Virus record (IMG/VR): IMGVR_UViG_3300033123_000549
Location: 1-26,069 of that record
Strand: one strand, 5' to 3'
Length of the DNA stretch: 26,069 nucleotides
DNA from: a virus
Taxonomy: Duplodnaviria > Caudoviricetes
The translations under genes and the position numbers were made by a program. Shown here one piece after another: positions 7,449 through 26,069 of this stretch. Within the stretch, counting starts at the first letter, position 1; each line of letters starts with the position of its first letter. The notes under the pieces are model-generated. The model was not told the origin of the DNA, searched no databases, and saw only the letters and a list, made by a program, of their open reading frames with translations.

Positions 7449-7616
7449 ATGAAAAAACCGAAATTTATCATCGCGGAAATCGACGAAGATTTGAAACAAA
7501 GATTCGATTCGAAAGTCCGCGAAGAAGGATCGAAGAATTCGCGCGTCCTTCGCCGTTTGATTCGGGCGTACATTACGAACGAAAACGACCAAAATAAAAA
7601 AGGCGCTTCCGATTAA
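7449..7616 (+). CDS. Ribbon-helix-helix (CopG/Arc-like) DNA-binding protein, 55 aa
   Basis: Own translation: MKKPKFIIAEIDEDLKQRFDSKVREEGSKNSRVLRRLIRAYITNENDQNKKGASD. Strand-helix-G-x-x-x-S-helix pattern. A-rich upstream region; below the ORF-track size cutoff. Confidence 0.75.
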   Translation: MKKPKFIIAEIDEDLKQRFDSKVREEGSKNSRVLRRLIRAYITNENDQNKKGASD

Positions 7617-18582: not shown

Positions 18583-18969
18583 TTAGAACGGTAAATCGTC
18601 GGCGAATTCGTCTTTTTGATTTGTTGCCGGCGCCGTTACCGGTGCGGCTGAATCGGATCGCTTTGTCAAAAGTTGAATTTCATTCGCCACCAATTCAAAC
18701 GACGCCTGGGCCGTTCCGTCTTTTCCAAGGTAGGCCGAAACTTCCGGACGGCCTTCGACAAAGATTTTGTCGCCTTTGTGAATGTAGTCGGCCAGGACGG
18801 CAGTTTTTCCTTCCTGGACGAATTTTTTACATTTTACCCAGGTTGTTTTTTCTTCCGTTTTCGTTTTGTACGTGTAAGCGACGGAAAAAACGATAACCTG
18901 AAGGCCATTGTTTAAAACTTTGACTTCCGCCGAGGTTCCTACGTTTCCAATGATTTGAGTTTTCAACAT
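18583..18969 (-). CDS. ssb: Single-stranded DNA-binding protein
   Basis: IIGNVG, FSVA, TTWVKC, YIHKGDKIFVEGR and the acidic C-terminal tip DDLPF. Confidence 0.95.
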   Translation of the reverse strand: MLKTQIIGNVGTSAEVKVLNNGLQVIVFSVAYTYKTKTEEKTTWVKCKKFVQEGKTAVLADYIHKGDKIFVEGRPEVSAYLGKDGTAQASFELVANEIQLLTKRSDSAAPVTAPATNQKDEFADDLPF

Positions 18970-18990
18970 ATTAAAAAAAATTTAGTTTAG

Positions 18991-19094
18991 TAGTCAGGAC
19001 AGGATTCGAACCTGCAAGCAGAGGCGGCGTCCATCTTCTGCGAGACTTTTCTATGGGAGGCGCCAGCGGTATTCCATATTCCCGCCACCTGACT
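18991..19094 (-). ncRNA. tRNA-like RNA (104 nt) without a canonical anticodon arm
   Basis: Acceptor stem AGTCAGG/CCTGACT plus discriminator A. D stem GCGG/CCGC with GG in the loop. T arm GCAGG-TTCGAAT-CCTGT. The 50-nt middle does not fold into a 5-bp/7-nt anticodon arm. No encoded CCA. Confidence 0.75.
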
Positions 19095-19253: not shown

Positions 19254-19278
19254 AACGACCAATTTTTTGAAAGTTTCC

Positions 19279-19308: not shown

Positions 19309-19569
19309 ATAGATTTTCGGAATTCCGTTTTCGATTTGTGTTTTGATTCCGGAAAAGAACGGATCGGTTTTTTTTATCTTCCAAAAAAGCGAAATTTTTT
19401 TGATTCGAACGAAGTTCAATTCATTTCGGCAAAATACCAATTCTTTCGAAATTTGTTGTTTTGTTCGATCCATTTCCGAAAGTTCGTTCCGGCGTTTGAG
19501 AAGCGCGCGTTCGTAATTTACGAAGAAAACCAGCGCTTCTTTCGGATCGTCGAATCCGTAGGTTTTCAT
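19297..19569 (-). CDS. Hypothetical protein
   Basis: 90-aa ORF with an ATGA overlap with the methyltransferase stop. Confidence 0.6.
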   Translation of the reverse strand: MKTYGFDDPKEALVFFVNYERALLKRRNELSEMDRTKQQISKELVFCRNELNFVRIKKISLFWKIKKTDPFFSGIKTQIENGIPKIYFEI

Positions 19570-20183
19570 AAAAAAAGGCGCGTTTGTGAAATATGAAGTT
19601 CGAATCGTTTTTTTGTCGCTTTGAAATATTCCGGATCGATTTCCGTCGCGAAAAATTCAAGTCCGGCGCGTTCGGCGGCGATTGCGGACGATCCGCTTCC
19701 CAGGTGAGTATCTATTATTTTATCCCCTGGCTTCGCGTAATTTTTGAAAATCCAGTCGTAAAGCGCTACCGGTTTCTGAGTTGGGTGAATTCGATCGTTT
19801 TGCATAGAACGAAGGACGAATTTTCGCGGCGCCGTTTCGAATGAAGTCCAGGCGAATTCGCCGTCTGCGAACGTCATTCCTTCGGCCGTCAATTTATCCC
19901 AAAAAATGAAATGTTTACACGGCCCAAGCGGAAAATAATTTCCGCCCCAGATTATTTGATTCTTTGAAACGCGAAACAATTCCGAAAAATATTCCGCGCT
20001 CGGAATTTGATCGTCCCAGGTCGCTTCGGCGAAACGTTTTCGTTTGCCTTTTTTTCGGCCAAGGTTCGCGTTTATATTTATACCGTAGGGCGGATCCACG
20101 ACGGCCAGGTCAAAATATTTATCCGGAAATTTTTTCATTTCCGAAACGCAGTCGGCGTTCAAAAGTTGGATTTGTGAATTCAT
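19566..20183 (-). CDS. DNA amino-methyltransferase (N6/N4 family, beta class)
   Basis: VVDPPYG catalytic motif followed by HPTQKPVALY and the IDTHLGSGSS SAM-binding motif. Confidence 0.93.
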   Translation of the reverse strand: MNSQIQLLNADCVSEMKKFPDKYFDLAVVDPPYGININANLGRKKGKRKRFAEATWDDQIPSAEYFSELFRVSKNQIIWGGNYFPLGPCKHFIFWDKLTAEGMTFADGEFAWTSFETAPRKFVLRSMQNDRIHPTQKPVALYDWIFKNYAKPGDKIIDTHLGSGSSAIAAERAGLEFFATEIDPEYFKATKKRFELHISQTRLFL

Positions 20184-20862: not shown

Positions 20863-21668
20863 TCGTCAAAACGTTTTTTCAAATCGTCCAGGACTTTCGA
20901 TTTTTTTTCGGCCGTGAAAAAAGTCGTTTCCAAAAGAACGGCTTTCGCTTCCGAAATTATTCGCGTCGTTTCTTCGGCGTCGCTTAAAAGGCGGATTCGT
21001 TCGAATGGATTCTTTTCGCTTTCGGCGTTGTATTTCAAACGGATTTTCGCGAATTCCAGGGCGCTGTTTTTTTGTTCGTGATTGAAATAAATCGAAGAAT
21101 TTTCTTCCTGGCCTTCGTGAATGAAATCGTAAACGACGGCCGCTGGAATATATCCCAAAAAATTCAAAAGTCCGGTTTCGATAAAAGGTTTCGCGATCGT
21201 TAAATAGAAATCGCGATCCAGTTTTCGTTTTTCTTGCGGCGTTGGCTGGTTCGTTTGAACGTGAACGGCCGCCAGGGCGCGTTCGTTTTCACGTGTGGCG
21301 CGTTCGACTTCGTTTTGATATGAACGTACCACCTTCGAAAAAAAGACGGCGGAAAACGTCTGAAAATGATCCGGAACGTTTTGAAGTTCGCCGGCGGCGT
21401 ACATAGTGAACGCCTGGCGAATTTGTTTGATAGTCAAAAATCCGAAGTTTGATCGAATGAATGAAATCAAAACGCGCGTTTGAAAATCGTCCGGAAGGTT
21501 GGTTCCTCGAATTCCGATCAAAGCGAAGACGGTCGAAAGCGTTTCGATCAAATCTTTGTCGGTTTCAAACGTCGAAATTTTCGGCGCTTGTTTCGCCTGA
21601 AGAATAAGCGCGTCGCGCCCAGTCGTTAAGATTTGCGGAAAATCCGTTTTTTGAATTTGTGTTTTCAT
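20859..21668 (-). CDS. Replication accessory protein (helicase loader/inhibitor-like)
   Basis: 269 aa directly after the initiator. FGFLTIKQIRQAF...DHFQTFSAVFFSKVVRSY pattern; function inferred mainly from position. Confidence 0.55.
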   Translation of the reverse strand: MKTQIQKTDFPQILTTGRDALILQAKQAPKISTFETDKDLIETLSTVFALIGIRGTNLPDDFQTRVLISFIRSNFGFLTIKQIRQAFTMYAAGELQNVPDHFQTFSAVFFSKVVRSYQNEVERATRENERALAAVHVQTNQPTPQEKRKLDRDFYLTIAKPFIETGLLNFLGYIPAAVVYDFIHEGQEENSSIYFNHEQKNSALEFAKIRLKYNAESEKNPFERIRLLSDAEETTRIISEAKAVLLETTFFTAEKKSKVLDDLKKRFDE

Positions 21669-22371
21669 TGTTTTGAAATTTTTTTTGATTTGTTGGAATA
21701 GTGGCCCAGTTGAAAAAGTGGCGCTGGAATTCGATTTTCGATTCGTACTTCCGGCCGTTTCCCTTTGCGAAAATAACGAACTTTTCGAGCGCTGGCAAAA
21801 TGAAAGATTTTCCGCCGATCGCCTGGGCTAAATTGAAAAGCCAAGATTCGTTTTCCGGTTGAATGATTTCGGCGGAAAATTCGTCGATTCCGGCCGGCTT
21901 CAAATCTTCGTCTTTTTGGATTTCGTCAAACGAACTTTTTTGTTTGTTTTTTATTTTATCTTTTGTTATTTTCTTTTCTATATAGGTGGCAGTGCGGAAA
22001 ATTTCCGCGTTGTCTTCCGCGTTGTCTTCCGCGTTGTCGGCTTTGACAAAGTGGATTTTTTCCGCGTTGTCTTCCGCGTTGTCGAACGTGAATTCGATCC
22101 GTTTGGCCCTGGCCTGGCCGACGATTTCCACCGTTCGAAATAGGCCAGCGGCTTCCAATTCATTCCAATATTTCGAAGCCGAATCGCGCGAAATACCCAG
22201 GTCGATCGAAGCGTCCGTCGGCGTCAAAAAAACGTCAGATTTGCGTCGCCGGTTCCAAAGATCCAAAAGGTAAAAACCGAACGCGATCGCCTGGAAGGAA
22301 ATCTTTCGGCGCGCGTAAGCGTCAAAAATCCAGCGTCCGGCATCGTAACCGGTGGCGATTTGTTTTTTCAT
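21565..22371 (-). CDS. Replication initiator protein (lambda O-like architecture)
   Basis: ATG 22371 (MKKQIATG). N-terminal winged HTH (ASIDLGISRDSASKYWNELEAAGLF), central iterons with an AT-rich tract, and a C-terminal FQRHFFNW domain. Confidence 0.8.
   Translation of the reverse strand: MKKQIATGYDAGRWIFDAYARRKISFQAIAFGFYLLDLWNRRRKSDVFLTPTDASIDLGISRDSASKYWNELEAAGLFRTVEIVGQARAKRIEFTFDNAEDNAEKIHFVKADNAEDNAEDNAEIFRTATYIEKKITKDKIKNKQKSSFDEIQKDEDLKPAGIDEFSAEIIQPENESWLFNLAQAIGGKSFILPALEKFVIFAKGNGRKYESKIEFQRHFFNWATIPTNQKKFQNNENTNSKNGFSANLNDWARRAYSSGETSAENFDV
22003..22083. repeat. Iterons of the putative replication origin: five copies of TTCCGCGTTGTC
   Basis: Copies at 22003, 22015, 22027, 22060 and 22072. 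Adjacent AT-rich tract at ~21935..21983 and palindrome GCGGAAA-A-TTTCCGC at 21994..22008. Confidence 0.85.
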
Positions 22372-22902: not shown

Positions 22903-23378
22903 TTAAGCGAAATTTTCAAAACGGTGGAAGATTTTTTTATCGGTGGAAATACTTCGACCAGTTCGCCGGTTTCTTCGATAACAATCGGAAGTTTGCCAGG
23001 AAGCGACTTCAGGAATTTTTCACGTTCAGATTTTTTCGCTTTTATTTCGGTTTCCTTTTCCAAAATTTCGGCCAGGATCGGATCGTTCGTTTCGCTGAAG
23101 TCGTATCGAACGCCGGCTTCGGCGACTGAAAAATCGACGCCGAAAGCGGACGATCCTTTTCCGCCGTGTTTAGCGGCTTCGGTTAGCGCGGCGTCCATTA
23201 TTTTCGAACGAACGTCTTCGGCGACCTTTGCGAGTTTATGCAAGTGAATAAACACTTCCAGCGCGTTTGTGTTTCCGTCTTCGACGTTTGAAACGATTTG
23301 TTCCACCAATGAAGAAACTTCTTCTTTTCCGGAATTTGGCGAAAGGATCGCCGACAAATTTTCGATTTGTGTTTTCAT
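22899..23378 (-). CDS. Conserved hypothetical phage protein (recombination module)
   Basis: 159 aa with an MKTQI start and a GVRYDFSETNDP motif; follows ERF. Confidence 0.7.
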   Translation of the reverse strand: MKTQIENLSAILSPNSGKEEVSSLVEQIVSNVEDGNTNALEVFIHLHKLAKVAEDVRSKIMDAALTEAAKHGGKGSSAFGVDFSVAEAGVRYDFSETNDPILAEILEKETEIKAKKSEREKFLKSLPGKLPIVIEETGELVEVFPPIKKSSTVLKISLK

Positions 23379-23397
23379 AAAAATAAAAATTTAAGGT

Positions 23398-24039
23398 TTA
23401 GTTTTTTGTTTCGGATTCAATAGCGCGAAGCGTCGCGTCGATTTCTTCGCCCAGGTCGGCGGAAATGTAAAAGTAAGCGGCGAATTTATCCAGGACGTCT
23501 TTTTCGCCAGCGCGAAAGCGATCGTACATTTTTGAAAGTTGTTCGGCGTTCGGCGCTTGCTTTGTTTTCGGTTGGCCTGGTTTCGATTCGTGTGTTTTGG
23601 AATCCGGATCGTTTTCTTCGCCGACGATCGGAATCGCGAACGTCTGAATCATAGCGTATTTATAGGCCGACGTTTGGGCTTTATTCGTCGCTTTGTCGCT
23701 GGAATCCATCGCTTCGCCGAAAGTCGTAATCGAATACGAAGAACCGTCTTCCGAACAAATAAAAGTGTATTTCATTTTCAGAATTACGTAATAAATCGCG
23801 CCGCCGGTTTTAGAAACTTTTTCGAATGAATCGCGGCTTTCGGCTTCCTGAAGGACGATCAAATTATTCTTCGCCAGGATCGGGCCGAGGACGTTATAAA
23901 GATCATCGATTCCGCGATATTTGAAACGCTGCTGTTCATTTACGCGATCTTTTCCGATTCCGATTTTCGCCAGGTCGCTGGCGGTTTTTGTAAGCGCTTC
24001 GAATACCTTCGGCGCTTCGTTTGTGATTTGTGTTTTCAT
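23398..24039 (-). CDS. ERF family single-strand annealing protein
   Basis: FKYRGIDDLYNVLGPILAKNNL and GEAMDSSDKATNKAQTSAYKYAMIQTFAIP...DPD motifs. The real start is probably ATG 24039. Confidence 0.88.
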   Translation of the reverse strand: MKTQITNEAPKVFEALTKTASDLAKIGIGKDRVNEQQRFKYRGIDDLYNVLGPILAKNNLIVLQEAESRDSFEKVSKTGGAIYYVILKMKYTFICSEDGSSYSITTFGEAMDSSDKATNKAQTSAYKYAMIQTFAIPIVGEENDPDSKTHESKPGQPKTKQAPNAEQLSKMYDRFRAGEKDVLDKFAAYFYISADLGEEIDATLRAIESETKN

Positions 24040-24060
24040 TTTGATTTGTGTTTGATTTTT

Positions 24061-24090
24061 CAAAGGTAAAAAACTTTTTTGATTTTGCAA
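24061..24090 (-). promoter_or_regulatory. Early promoter (Bacteroidota sigmaA consensus)
   Basis: TTG-N19-TACCTTTG. Shares AAAAAGTTTTTTACCTTTG with the promoter at 25464..25493. Confidence 0.8.
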
Positions 24091-24113: not shown

Positions 24114-24335
24114 TTATTTTTTGATCGATTGCAAAAGAACGATTTCGGAAGCTCGAAGAATTTTATTTGCGACGCCAAACTGAAGTTCTAAACCTTCGAC
24201 GGCGCGGAAGACGGTCGGATAACTTATTCCGGCGATCCTGGCGAATTCTTTTTTTTCGACGATCGAAAGCGCGTCGATCATTTTTTTTCGTTCCGGCTTT
24301 GTTAAAGTCCGGTTTCGTTTTACATAAACTTTCAT
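24114..24335 (-). CDS. Cro-like helix-turn-helix protein, 73 aa
   Basis: ATG 24335 (ATGA overlap). KKEFARIAGISYPTVFRAVEG is an HTH pattern. Confidence 0.75.
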   Translation of the reverse strand: MKVYVKRNRTLTKPERKKMIDALSIVEKKEFARIAGISYPTVFRAVEGLELQFGVANKILRASEIVLLQSIKK

Positions 24336-24643
24336 AGGTAGTGAGTTATTGAAGGGAAAATTTCTATTGAAGCGCGAACGAAAGCGAAGTCGATCGGATC
24401 GAAACGTTTCCGAATGGATCGAATCTTTTCGGCCGTTACGACTTCCAGCCAGTTTTCTTCGTCGCCGGTTGTTGGTTTGTTTTGATCGACAAAAAAATCG
24501 ATATTTGATTTCAGGCGTTCGTCGATTTGTAAGCGGTGGCCGTTTTGTTCGAGTTCGAAAGTAAACGGCGCGAAGGCCACCGAAAACCATTTCTGAAGGT
24601 CGTTTGAATCGGTGGCGTTTAGGTTTGTGATTTGTGTTTTCAT
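24332..24643 (-). CDS. Hypothetical early protein
   Basis: 103 aa with an MKTQI start. Confidence 0.7.
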   Translation of the reverse strand: MKTQITNLNATDSNDLQKWFSVAFAPFTFELEQNGHRLQIDERLKSNIDFFVDQNKPTTGDEENWLEVVTAEKIRSIRKRFDPIDFAFVRASIEIFPSITHYL

Positions 24644-24647
24644 TTGA

Positions 24648-24878
24648 TTAAAGTTTGAAAGGTTCGCGTTTTATCATTTCATTTTTTAGCGCTTCGTCCA
24701 GCGCGGTTTTCATTTCTTCGACGGCTTCTTCGAATGTTTCCAGGCCGAATAGGTTCAATCGCGCCAGGCGTTTGAAATCGCCGGTTTCCGGATCTTCGAA
24801 TCCATATTCGAACCAATATAAAAAACCGATTTCGCCAGGTTGCTTTTCGGAATCGGTGGCAAATCTAAACGTTCCCAT
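24648..24878 (-). CDS. Hypothetical early protein
   Basis: 76-aa ORF with small gaps to both neighbours. Confidence 0.65.
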   Translation of the reverse strand: MGTFRFATDSEKQPGEIGFLYWFEYGFEDPETGDFKRLARLNLFGLETFEEAVEEMKTALDEALKNEMIKREPFKL

Positions 24879-24880
24879 TT

Positions 24881-25219
24881 TTACGCGTTTTCAATGTTAG
24901 CGAAGGATTCGATCAAATCGCGAATCGATTTCATTTCGGCCGGCGTTGCTTCGGCGTCTTCGGATTCCAGGACGATTTTTTCAATAGTTAGGCGGTAATC
25001 GTAACCGACGCCACCGATCGAAAAGTCCTGGAAGGCCTGGCCTTCGAAAAAGATTTTTAGATCGTCGCCGTCGTAATAAAGGCCGGCGAAGTCGGCCGCA
25101 GCCGTGAAGTTGTGAAGTGCGCGGTTCTTTGTAAAAACGACGCCGTTCCAGGTTTGGTTTGCGCTTTGACCGTTCATTTTTTCAAGGCGAACGTCAAAGC
25201 CGGTGATTTGTGTTTTCAT
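24881..25219 (-). CDS. Hypothetical early protein
   Basis: 112 aa with an MKTQI start. Confidence 0.7.
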   Translation of the reverse strand: MKTQITGFDVRLEKMNGQSANQTWNGVVFTKNRALHNFTAAADFAGLYYDGDDLKIFFEGQAFQDFSIGGVGYDYRLTIEKIVLESEDAEATPAEMKSIRDLIESFANIENA

Positions 25220-25236
25220 AAAAAAAAATTGAATGT

Positions 25237-25440
25237 TTATTTTGAAATGTTTTCTTCGCGAACAAATTCGACGTAATTACGGCCGAAAGTTACCTGGTAG
25301 GAAAGGTGATAAGTAACGTTCAAACGGTTATCGATTTGAACGCAGTGAATTTCGCCTGGCTTACCTAAATAGGAAATTTTTTCGCCGGCTTTGAATTTCG
25401 AATTTTGTAATTTTTCGGCTTTTGCTTGTTGGTAGTTCAT
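25237..25440 (-). CDS. Hypothetical early protein (SH3/KOW-like pattern), 67 aa
   Basis: ATG 25440 (MNYQQAKAEKLQNSKFKAGEKISYLGKPGEIHCV...). First gene after the early promoter. Confidence 0.65.
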   Translation of the reverse strand: MNYQQAKAEKLQNSKFKAGEKISYLGKPGEIHCVQIDNRLNVTYHLSYQVTFGRNYVEFVREENISK

Positions 25441-25463
25441 TTTGATTTGTGTTTTGTACCTCA

Positions 25464-25493
25464 CAAAGGTAAAAAACTTTTTTTATTCTGCAA
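25464..25493 (-). promoter_or_regulatory. Early promoter (Bacteroidota sigmaA consensus)
   Basis: TTG-N19-TACCTTTG. Confidence 0.8.
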
Positions 25494-25521
25494 GCAAAAA
25501 AGTAAAAAAAATTTTTGATAC

Positions 25522-25549
25522 AAAAAAAAGCGCCAGGAATCCCGGCGCT
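25522..25549 (-). terminator. Intrinsic terminator
   Basis: AGCGCCGGG-ATT-CCTGGCGCT followed by a T run. Confidence 0.85.
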
Positions 25550-25586
25550 CGTTTCAAAAACAACCAAATTTTTGAAAACACAAATC
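25522..25586 (-). ncRNA. Candidate ~65-nt small antisense RNA
   Basis: Lies between TATATTTG (25591..25598) and the terminator. Its 5' GAUUUGUGUUUUCA is complementary to the repeated early-gene start motif. Internal 9-bp hairpin UUUCAAAAA/UUUUUGAAA. Confidence 0.6.
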
Positions 25587-25590
25587 GAAA

Positions 25591-25620
25591 CAAATATACT
25601 TCGAAAAATTTACTTTTCGA
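25591..25620 (-). promoter_or_regulatory. Promoter candidate for the small RNA
   Basis: TCG-N19-TATATTTG: perfect -7 element, one mismatch at -33. No ORF lies between it and the terminator. Confidence 0.6.
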
Positions 25621-25849
25621 TTTTTTCTTCGTCTACGGTCGTTTGTGCCACAGCCGAAGCCACCAGGCCAGCCGTCGCAATATAGCCGACGATTCCGGCC
25701 GGAATAGCCACCGGCGCCGCAGCCAAAACGCCAGCGATCGCGGTTAAAATCATTCCAGCGTTTCGAATTTTTTTGAAGAACGACGGCGTCGGCGCGTTCA
25801 AACGTTCTTCGAGCGAAAGTGAATTCGCGGTTTTCTTTTCTTTTTTCAT
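25610..25849 (-). CDS. Small membrane protein, holin-like
   Basis: 79 aa: APTPSFFKKIRN followed by two hydrophobic helices. Confidence 0.7.
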   Translation of the reverse strand: MKKEKKTANSLSLEERLNAPTPSFFKKIRNAGMILTAIAGVLAAAPVAIPAGIVGYIATAGLVASAVAQTTVDEEKIEK

Positions 25850-25866
25850 ATTTCAAAAAGTTAGTT

Positions 25867-26019
25867 TCATTCGATAAATATTTCGACGTAGGACTGGCCT
25901 TCGTTTTCAGATTCCCAAAGGCGCGAACCAGGAACGAAAACGTTCGTCGCCTGTTCGAAAGTTAGATCGTAAAGCGTGGCGCCTTCCGGATCCGTTACGG
26001 CGTAGCGTTTTTTTATCAT
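25867..26019 (-). CDS. Small hypothetical protein, 50 aa (follows the fibre gene)
   Basis: Own translation: MIKKRYAVTDPEGATLYDLTFEQATNVFVPGSRLWESENEGQSYVEIFIE. ATGA overlap with the fibre stop. Confidence 0.6.
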   Translation of the reverse strand: MIKKRYAVTDPEGATLYDLTFEQATNVFVPGSRLWESENEGQSYVEIFIE

Positions 26020-26069
26020 TGTTTCAAAATTTCAATAAATACGAATTCCAGAATCGCCGTATCGGTTCC
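26016..26069 (-). CDS. C-terminal 17 aa of the tail fibre (joins 1..1416 across the junction)
   Basis: Reads GTDTAILEFVFIEILKQ-stop from the first base of the minus strand, in frame with ...FNILKAT at position 1. Confidence 0.75.
   Translation of the reverse strand, partial: GTDTAILEFVFIEILKQ

Follow-up and report, generated by a model that had tools for sequence, protein, structure and literature searches.

The window analysed here, a stretch of 26,069 nt, raises the question of what is encoded in a short gap between genes on its minus strand. The initial annotation read this gap as a phage small RNA whose 5' end is antisense to the start-codon regions of a whole set of early genes.

Genome context

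The window appears to be a small tailed phage of the Bacteroidota type. A scan of its 43 proteins identified a terminase, portal, Clp-type protease, tape measure, endolysin and holin, as well as ERF, SSB, a methylase and a PD-(D/E)XK nuclease, and the minus strand holds almost all of the genes. The IMG/VR record is listed as linear and 39% complete. Position 1 is joined to position 26069 in an independent record of the same virus (L068) and also in a 96%-identical relative (L308). Because both contigs join its ends we treated the window as a complete circle, and the 26,069 bp probably constitute a complete circular genome. Relatives of the putative capsid occur in Cellulophaga phage phi46:1 and in contigs of Saprospiraceae, Flavobacterium, Polaribacter and Parafilimonas, with six of seven loci falling in Bacteroidota, and the phage host likely belongs to this phylum. 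The sequencing runs that contain the virus are freshwater DNA; no RNA run is listed among the 22, which has no bearing on expression.

The genome had been described as having no recognisable CI or integrase. No integrase was found by the 43-protein scan or a six-frame search, and neither an antirepressor nor CI was recognised among the 43 proteins, although two candidate regulators score below the Pfam cut-off. One is an RHH-like gene at 7449-7616 (plus strand, E 0.001), apparently the sole real plus-strand gene, which lies between the tape measure and protease genes. The other is a Cro-like HTH gene at 24114-24335 (minus strand, E 0.07). The 268-aa initiator-like protein resembles phage replication initiators, and the linker of its gene contains short repeats encoding NAED (21987-22083); such short repeats are typical of origin iterons. 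A tRNA-shaped element at 18990-19094 (minus strand) has an acceptor stem, a D-like arm and a T arm with GGUUCGAAUCC, while a long insert replaces the anticodon arm. It was missed by ARAGORN and Rfam, and 113 nt of this region are skipped in the contigs of all four runs compared.

Anatomy of the predicted small RNA unit

Read along the minus strand, the locus consists of TCG, 19 nt, TATATTTG, TTTC, GATTTGTGTTTTCAAAAATTTGGTTGTTTTTGAAACG, a GC-rich hairpin and a T run. Its features are as follows.

25618..25620, minus strand: putative -33 element TCG, 19 nt before the -7 box; the same spacing separates TTG from the box in promoters P1 and P2
25591..25598, minus strand: Bacteroidota sigma-A -7 box TATATTTG, with the TAnnTTTG consensus reported for this phylum (PMC9723704)
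25521..25586, minus strand: predicted non-coding RNA of ~65 nt, with +1 placed 4 nt past the -7 box, as in FopS-10
25573..25586, minus strand: 5' seed, reverse complement of the tag at early genes, with its first 7-9 nt free in the predicted fold
25552..25577, minus strand: hairpin 1, a 10-pair stem that takes up the 3' part of the seed
25520..25550, minus strand: intrinsic terminator, a 10-pair stem (GC-rich hairpin 25550-25528) and a T run
25610..25849, minus strand: 79-aa gene, the last gene upstream; the unit lies in its 3' region

At the sequence level, then, the promoter with its TCG-N19-box arrangement, the terminator with its T run and the ~65-nt unit between them are all present where they had been described, and the unit is single-copy in this genome. 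The predicted fold of the 67-nt strand comprises nine unpaired 5' bases, a 10-pair hairpin and the terminator, and none of 200 shuffled sequences was equally stable (z = -4.4); the stability of hairpin 1 by itself was not significant (z = -1.4). The proposed unpaired 5' toehold thus agrees with the fold, and so does a hairpin that holds the end of the seed, except that ten pairs are predicted instead of nine. Opening the first 7-9 nt of the seed would cost 0.1-0.7 kcal/mol, compared to 5.9 kcal/mol for all 14. The U/G-rich top of hairpin 1 is predicted to be able to pair with AAUCAAA upstream of some AUGs.

There are 25 TAnnTTTG boxes in the window, and the inverted tag copy starts 4 nt past one of them. 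Given these 25 boxes, the chance of its lying within 1 nt of that placement is ~0.0014. Because the genome is circular, the terminator of the unit likely also ends the late operon; since this is an ordinary job for a terminator, we do not count it as independent evidence for a small RNA. No Rfam family matched the unit at gathering score, the best being ncS54 (21.6 of 43 bits) and rliI (20.2 of 45 bits). An identity with Flavo-1 was discarded after no Rfam match appeared in the window or in seven relative loci, and the idea of a conserved loop motif was given up when a scan with AAAANTTGGTT yielded 33 loci, none of them new with targets.

Early-gene starts with a 14-nt tag in one orientation

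The seed is complementary to a 14-mer, TGAAAACACAAATC, which occurs in five exact copies in the window and in none of 100 shuffles. Allowing up to two mismatches gave 12 copies against 0.8 expected, 11 on the minus strand and one on the plus strand; allowing up to three gave 17, of which again just one is on the plus strand. That one is the seed, and the view that it is the sole copy in the opposite orientation therefore stands. The main copies and the early promoters are located as follows.

25464..25493, minus strand: early promoter P1 (TTG-N19-TACCTTTG)
25444..25457, minus strand: tag in the leader of P1, 12/14, ahead of the 67-aa gene
25205..25218, minus strand: tag at the start of the 112-aa gene, 14/14, MKTQI
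24629..24642, minus strand: tag at the start of the 103-aa gene, 14/14
24061..24090, minus strand: early promoter P2 (TTG-N19-TACCTTTG)
24043..24056, minus strand: tag in the P2 leader, 11/14 (three mismatches)
24025..24038, minus strand: tag at the start of the ERF recombinase gene, 14/14
23364..23377, minus strand: tag at the start of the 159-aa gene, 14/14; 21 of 22 nt here match the inverted copy
22357..22370, minus strand: tag at the start of the initiator-like gene, 13/14, with the mismatch near the toehold
21654..21667, minus strand: tag at the start of the 269-aa gene, 13/14
20169..20182, minus strand: tag at the start of the DNA methylase gene, 12/14
19333..19346, minus strand: tag within the coding region of the 90-aa gene at its 3' end, 13/14, away from a start codon
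19230..19243, minus strand: tag in codons 4-8 of the 52-aa gene, downstream of promoter P3, 13/14
18952..18965, minus strand: tag at codons 2-6 of the SSB gene, 13/14

With the classes assigned from gene position and annotation, and with one 'early' start (19105) that may be spurious, the tag at 12/14 or better was found at 10 of 20 early starts and at none of 23 late starts (p = 1e-4); at 11/14 or better the counts were 10 of 20 and 2 of 23. Equally good sites in late genes or on both strands, which would have spoken against a directed RNA, were thus not seen at 12/14 or better. Threonine is encoded by ACA in all five MKTQI starts, compared to 11% of threonine codons in general, and two tag copies are non-coding, lying in the early promoter leaders. 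This indicates that the tag is kept at the nucleotide level. At the main early promoters, P1 and P2, a tag copy falls within the first ~16 transcribed bases. The unit and the tag are a real, non-random feature of this genome.

In the P3 leader (19254-19272, minus strand), 17 of 19 nt are the same as bases 10-28 of the predicted RNA. This leader can fold onto its own tag, which would hide the 52-aa start; it is possibly a diverged duplicate, or a chance match.

Predicted pairing with early-gene starts

Genome-wide, 840 windows passed a duplex prefilter and were scored with accessibility included. The best four were early starts and the fifth was the internal copy in the 90-aa gene, in line with part of the expectation that the MKTQI starts would rank top; the 159-aa site fell among the background windows, as did those of P1, the 52-aa gene and SSB, and the row labelled methylase in this ranking does not contain the methylase tag. 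Energies centred on the sites ranged from -19.5 to -14.6 kcal/mol for the ERF, 112-aa, 103-aa, 159-aa and 269-aa genes. They were -12.3 kcal/mol at P1, -11.5 at the 52-aa gene, -10.1 at the methylase, -8.8 at SSB and -7.7 at the initiator-like gene, and five late control starts gave -1.0 to -5.9 kcal/mol.

Based on these site-centred energies, the strong predicted target set comprises five to six genes and not the whole list first put forward. ERF and the 112-, 103-, 159- and 269-aa genes remain on that list, whereas the initiator-like, SSB and methylase sites lie within the genome-wide background. The label 'loader' found no support, the 269-aa protein having matched only families of unknown function. 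For ranking targets in relatives, raw duplex energies with G-U pairs were too noisy.

Conservation among close relatives

Positions 25521-25598 carry no substitution in L308 or in X8, X14 and X20, the runs that cover the unit (X16 has no coverage there), while 24 pooled variable sites occur in the 458 nt around it (25436-25893; p ~0.01-0.02). One variable site, at 25520, lies just past the T run. In L308 alone, 13% of 79-nt windows are unchanged anyway.

The tags drift at the background rate: in L308 (96% identity) two of six tags have changed, at 4 of 84 nt, equal to the 3.9% background. The ERF gene of L308 keeps its leader tag copy, and a relative that lacks the first early gene has a different leader in which the tag is still present. 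Among relatives, an extra gene is inserted at 24632-24649, at the tag. The methylase gene (19564-20179) and the first early gene (25219-25462) are absent or replaced in relatives, with the joints at gene starts. In homologues of the 159-aa protein, MKTQI is retained at 81-99% identity (P0018, at 81%, still starts with it) but missing at 37-38%, which makes the tag lineage-specific. An exact promoter-plus-seed scan of IMG/VR returned 67 loci, with multiple tags in the same virus alone, and single-protein scans with the capsid and terminase found no close relative there.

A different seed-tag pair in a distant relative

An alignment search found 340 capsid relatives, 80 of which were entered, and 30 whole records were included (27 from the capsid, 3 from ERF). 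We compared 10/10 seed matches at the starts of a unit's own genome with those at all other starts, for 74 promoter-terminator units in 173 sequences with 4863 genes, called by a crude method that accepts ATG starts alone. The 173 sequences leave out copies of this virus, L001-L067, loci shorter than 4 kb and those for which the whole record was used instead; near-duplicates remain among them. Among the matches listed, two of the 74 units passed correction. One is the unit described here (G000), matching 5 of 48 own starts and 14 of 4815 others (p = 8e-7); the other is in G042, whose major capsid is ~30% identical to that of this phage, with 5 of 66 own starts and 18 of 4797 others (p = 1e-5).

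The G042 unit has the same promoter-terminator layout with a different seed, and G042 carries its own matching tag, whose four exact sense copies all lie at or just before early starts, two of them directly behind promoters. The unit lies between tail genes, on the strand opposite to the late genes and with its own terminator. Reciprocally, the G000 tag was at none of 66 G042 starts and the G042 tag at 1 of 48 G000 starts. G001 and G035 were borderline: G001 matched 9 of 65 own starts (p = 1e-4) but 1 of 65 in a stricter test, and its seed also matches G042 starts. Similar units without own targets occur in G044 (0/55) and G031 (0-1/36). A scan with the G001/G042 seed returned 11 loci, the two known ones and nine without a terminator or own targets.

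The predicted seed and tag thus covary at the level of the whole system, in two clear cases, this phage and G042. The anticipated covariation in relatives is borne out to that extent; a compensatory single-base change of seed and tag was not seen. Because the units share no alignment beyond promoter and T run, we treat them as analogous and not shown to be homologous.

The gap between the tape measure and protease genes, which holds the RHH-like gene in this phage, is the site of a small-RNA-like unit in G001 and G044. A second recurring promoter-terminator unit was observed in the capsid relatives, with a 5' hairpin loop that looks complementary to the terminator loop. Its sequences differ between genomes, no Rfam match was found in the loci scanned, and a pseudoknot or attenuator is possible. 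It occurs at these positions:

G004:C1 24427(-), G010 12774(-), G011 16460(-), G014 20056(-), G016 4097(+)
G024 7215(+), G033 22443(-) and 18201(-), G038 25648(-), G042 6721(+)

Relation to known systems

Phages P1/P7 and P4 use small antisense RNAs, C4 and CI respectively, in immunity. These had been named as the nearest precedents, but by analogy of function the closest precedent is FopS. The C4 covariance model (RF01695) had no match at E up to 10. C4 represses a linked antirepressor operon in a temperate phage, and here no antirepressor, CI or integrase was found among the 43 proteins scanned. C4 acts on one antirepressor operon, whereas the unit here is a primary promoter-to-terminator unit with ~10 dispersed putative targets.

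FopS (RF04319) and GibS are small RNAs of Bacteroides thetaiotaomicron (PMC11697453). FopS is reported there to have 12-15 paralogues, to bind RbpB and to target host PUL mRNAs, with one copy in a phage, and FopS-10 blocks translation at start codons in vitro, as supported by compensatory mutants. Like FopS, our unit has, at the sequence level, a Bacteroidota sigma promoter with +1 four nt past TAnnTTTG, a length of 65-70 nt, an intrinsic terminator and a 5' seed predicted to be complementary to start-codon regions. It shares the 4-nt spacing with FopS-10, and the 5' word of FopS-10, GUGUUUUUCA, resembles that of the unit, both having the form GUGUUUU(U)CA, with an identical word of 7 nt. Unlike FopS, it is single-copy, and in place of host PUL mRNAs it apparently targets early genes of the phage itself, by way of a dedicated 14-nt tag. 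The RF04319 model did not match at the unit (gathering 56 bits), its only match in the window being one of 17.8 bits at 23369-23451, antisense of a tag. By these models the unit is a member of neither FopS nor C4.

Cluster K mycobacteriophages have a comparable arrangement, the SAS, an asymmetric 13-mer in one orientation at non-structural gene starts, with a single inverted copy away from a gene start; the account in PMC3203893 leaves its function and its RNA or protein partner open. Two closely related K1 genomes have, in their right-hand 35 kb, 16 and 14 sense copies by our count, with one inverted copy in each. The lone inverted SAS (L322:33683-33695 in Adephagia, L323:33836-33848 in CrimD) is predicted to occupy the 10-nt loop of a long intergenic hairpin, which on this folding model is a candidate antisense RNA, as a lead only. 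The SAS is like our tag in being a one-orientation start tag with one inverted copy; it differs in its actinobacterial host, in overlapping the Shine-Dalgarno site upstream of AUG, and in presenting the inverted copy in a loop instead of at a 5' end, and the sequences are unrelated. P22 Sar, lambda OOP and BTP1 STnc6030 are phage antisense RNAs on phage genes, including roles in immunity or exclusion, and each acts on one phage gene or operon, none having a shared many-gene tag as far as PMC12197685 describes them. Our search of the literature, mostly open-access, returned no phage small RNA aimed at a tag common to many early genes.

Proposed mechanism

We consider it probable that the unit encodes a FopS-like small RNA directed against the phage's own early regulon, where it would block the initiation of translation, with early shut-off ahead of immunity as its role. 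The early/late and strand asymmetry, the toehold, the conservation, G042 and the FopS precedent all point to an antisense RNA as first proposed; the full target list is less well supported. The RNA would be made by host polymerase with host sigma-A. Its unpaired GAUUUGUGU toehold would nucleate on ACACAAAUC, and this pairing would then open hairpin 1. In the reading frame the resulting duplex would span bases +2 to +15, and on the P1 and P2 transcripts the first ~16 nt; pairing of the hairpin top upstream of the AUG may sometimes lengthen it. Ribosome loading on several early genes would be blocked at once, as in repression by FopS-10, and initiation in Bacteroidetes is reported to depend on local sequence and structure at the AUG (PMC6847099). 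If the first genes are not translated, polar effects on the operons may follow. The seed may also come from the 3' end of the late transcript, because on a circular genome late transcription passes the 79-aa gene into the same terminator.

If the unit does act as such an RNA, we lean towards a role in shutting off early genes as the RNA accumulates. We favour this because the unit lies at the late-operon 3' end, its -33 element departs from the consensus and no integrase was found. A role in immunity or in a plasmid-like carrier state is possible but rather unlikely under the same model.

Alternative readings

The tag could instead be the binding site of a phage protein, on DNA as an operator or stoperator, or on mRNA in the manner of RegA, and the inverted copy one more promoter site. 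In keeping with this, the promoters at 25598, 25471 and 24068 all carry a tag copy at their start and the genome has the RHH-like and HTH genes, but these are weak candidates with matches below Pfam cut-offs, and the tag is non-palindromic. Cluster A mycobacteriophage stoperators resemble the tag in being many asymmetric sites, 13-mers, oriented with transcription (PMC9283540). According to the same source they are protein-DNA sites that are intergenic and inactive when reversed, and no such repressor was found here. Since reversed stoperators lose function, a protein site leaves the inverted copy unexplained, the only tag site not oriented with transcription, and this copy heads a unit without a product to regulate. 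Moreover, eight copies lie on or just past start codons, most of them far from promoters. We regard a protein site as improbable.

Alternatively, the tag would be an A-rich, translation-friendly start spread by recombination as early genes come and go, and the inverted copy the relic of a short inverted duplication at the 3' end of the late operon, with the terminator insulating P1. Early genes have been gained and lost at the tag, as at the 24632-24649 insertion, the tags drift at the background rate, and Bacteroidetes lack Shine-Dalgarno sites and are described as using upstream adenines (PMC6847099). The 21/22-nt match to the 159-aa start extends past the predicted +1 by 4 nt on the upstream side, consistent with the relic of a DNA duplication. 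A relic would not, however, be expected to start exactly at a promoter +1, and highly expressed late genes lack the tag (0/23). The unit is also unchanged in four relatives while its flanks vary, and the arrangement recurs in G042 with different sequence, opposite to the late genes and with its own terminator. This reading has a low probability in our view.

A FopS-like RNA of a generic anti-start kind, with host mRNAs as its main targets, would account for the 5' word common to the unit and FopS-10, and FopS has been reported in a phage (PMC11697453); the seeds of G044, G031 and G001 likewise look generic, with few or no specific own targets. This reading predicts the opposite of the tag enrichment seen in the early genes of the phage itself. 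Five Bacteroidota genomes together contain one full tag, compared to five in 26 kb here, and the promoter-plus-seed pattern was in none of 401 sampled genomes of the phylum. We judge it very unlikely. A last reading takes the inverted copy for the tagged start of a gene on the plus strand, an open frame of 37 codons (LKTQIETN...) with a TTG start at 25572. It is scarcely credible and was rejected, as the frame is broken by a stop at codon 25 in L308, with the same base change in X14 and X20, has no TAnnTTTG box upstream on the plus strand and is in register with the antisense gene.

Implications

If the antisense reading is right, one RNA controls a dispersed early regulon through a tag that also shapes the first five residues of the proteins, which would provide a regulatory mechanism for small Bacteroidota phages without a recognisable repressor. 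We propose, tentatively, that one tiny RNA, with a private tag in the leaders and first codons of the early genes, can replace a phage's protein master repressor, seed and tag being re-invented in each lineage; this would explain the SAS and amount to a strategy of shut-off or immunity that crosses phyla. The published open question of the SAS in cluster K mycobacteriophages becomes testable, with the lone inverted SAS in a predicted hairpin loop and a laboratory host available on which the phages grow. From such seed-tag pairs, immunity groups or the timing of genes could also be read off a sequence, and Bacteroidota, a group lacking Shine-Dalgarno sites, would gain a compact tool for silencing.
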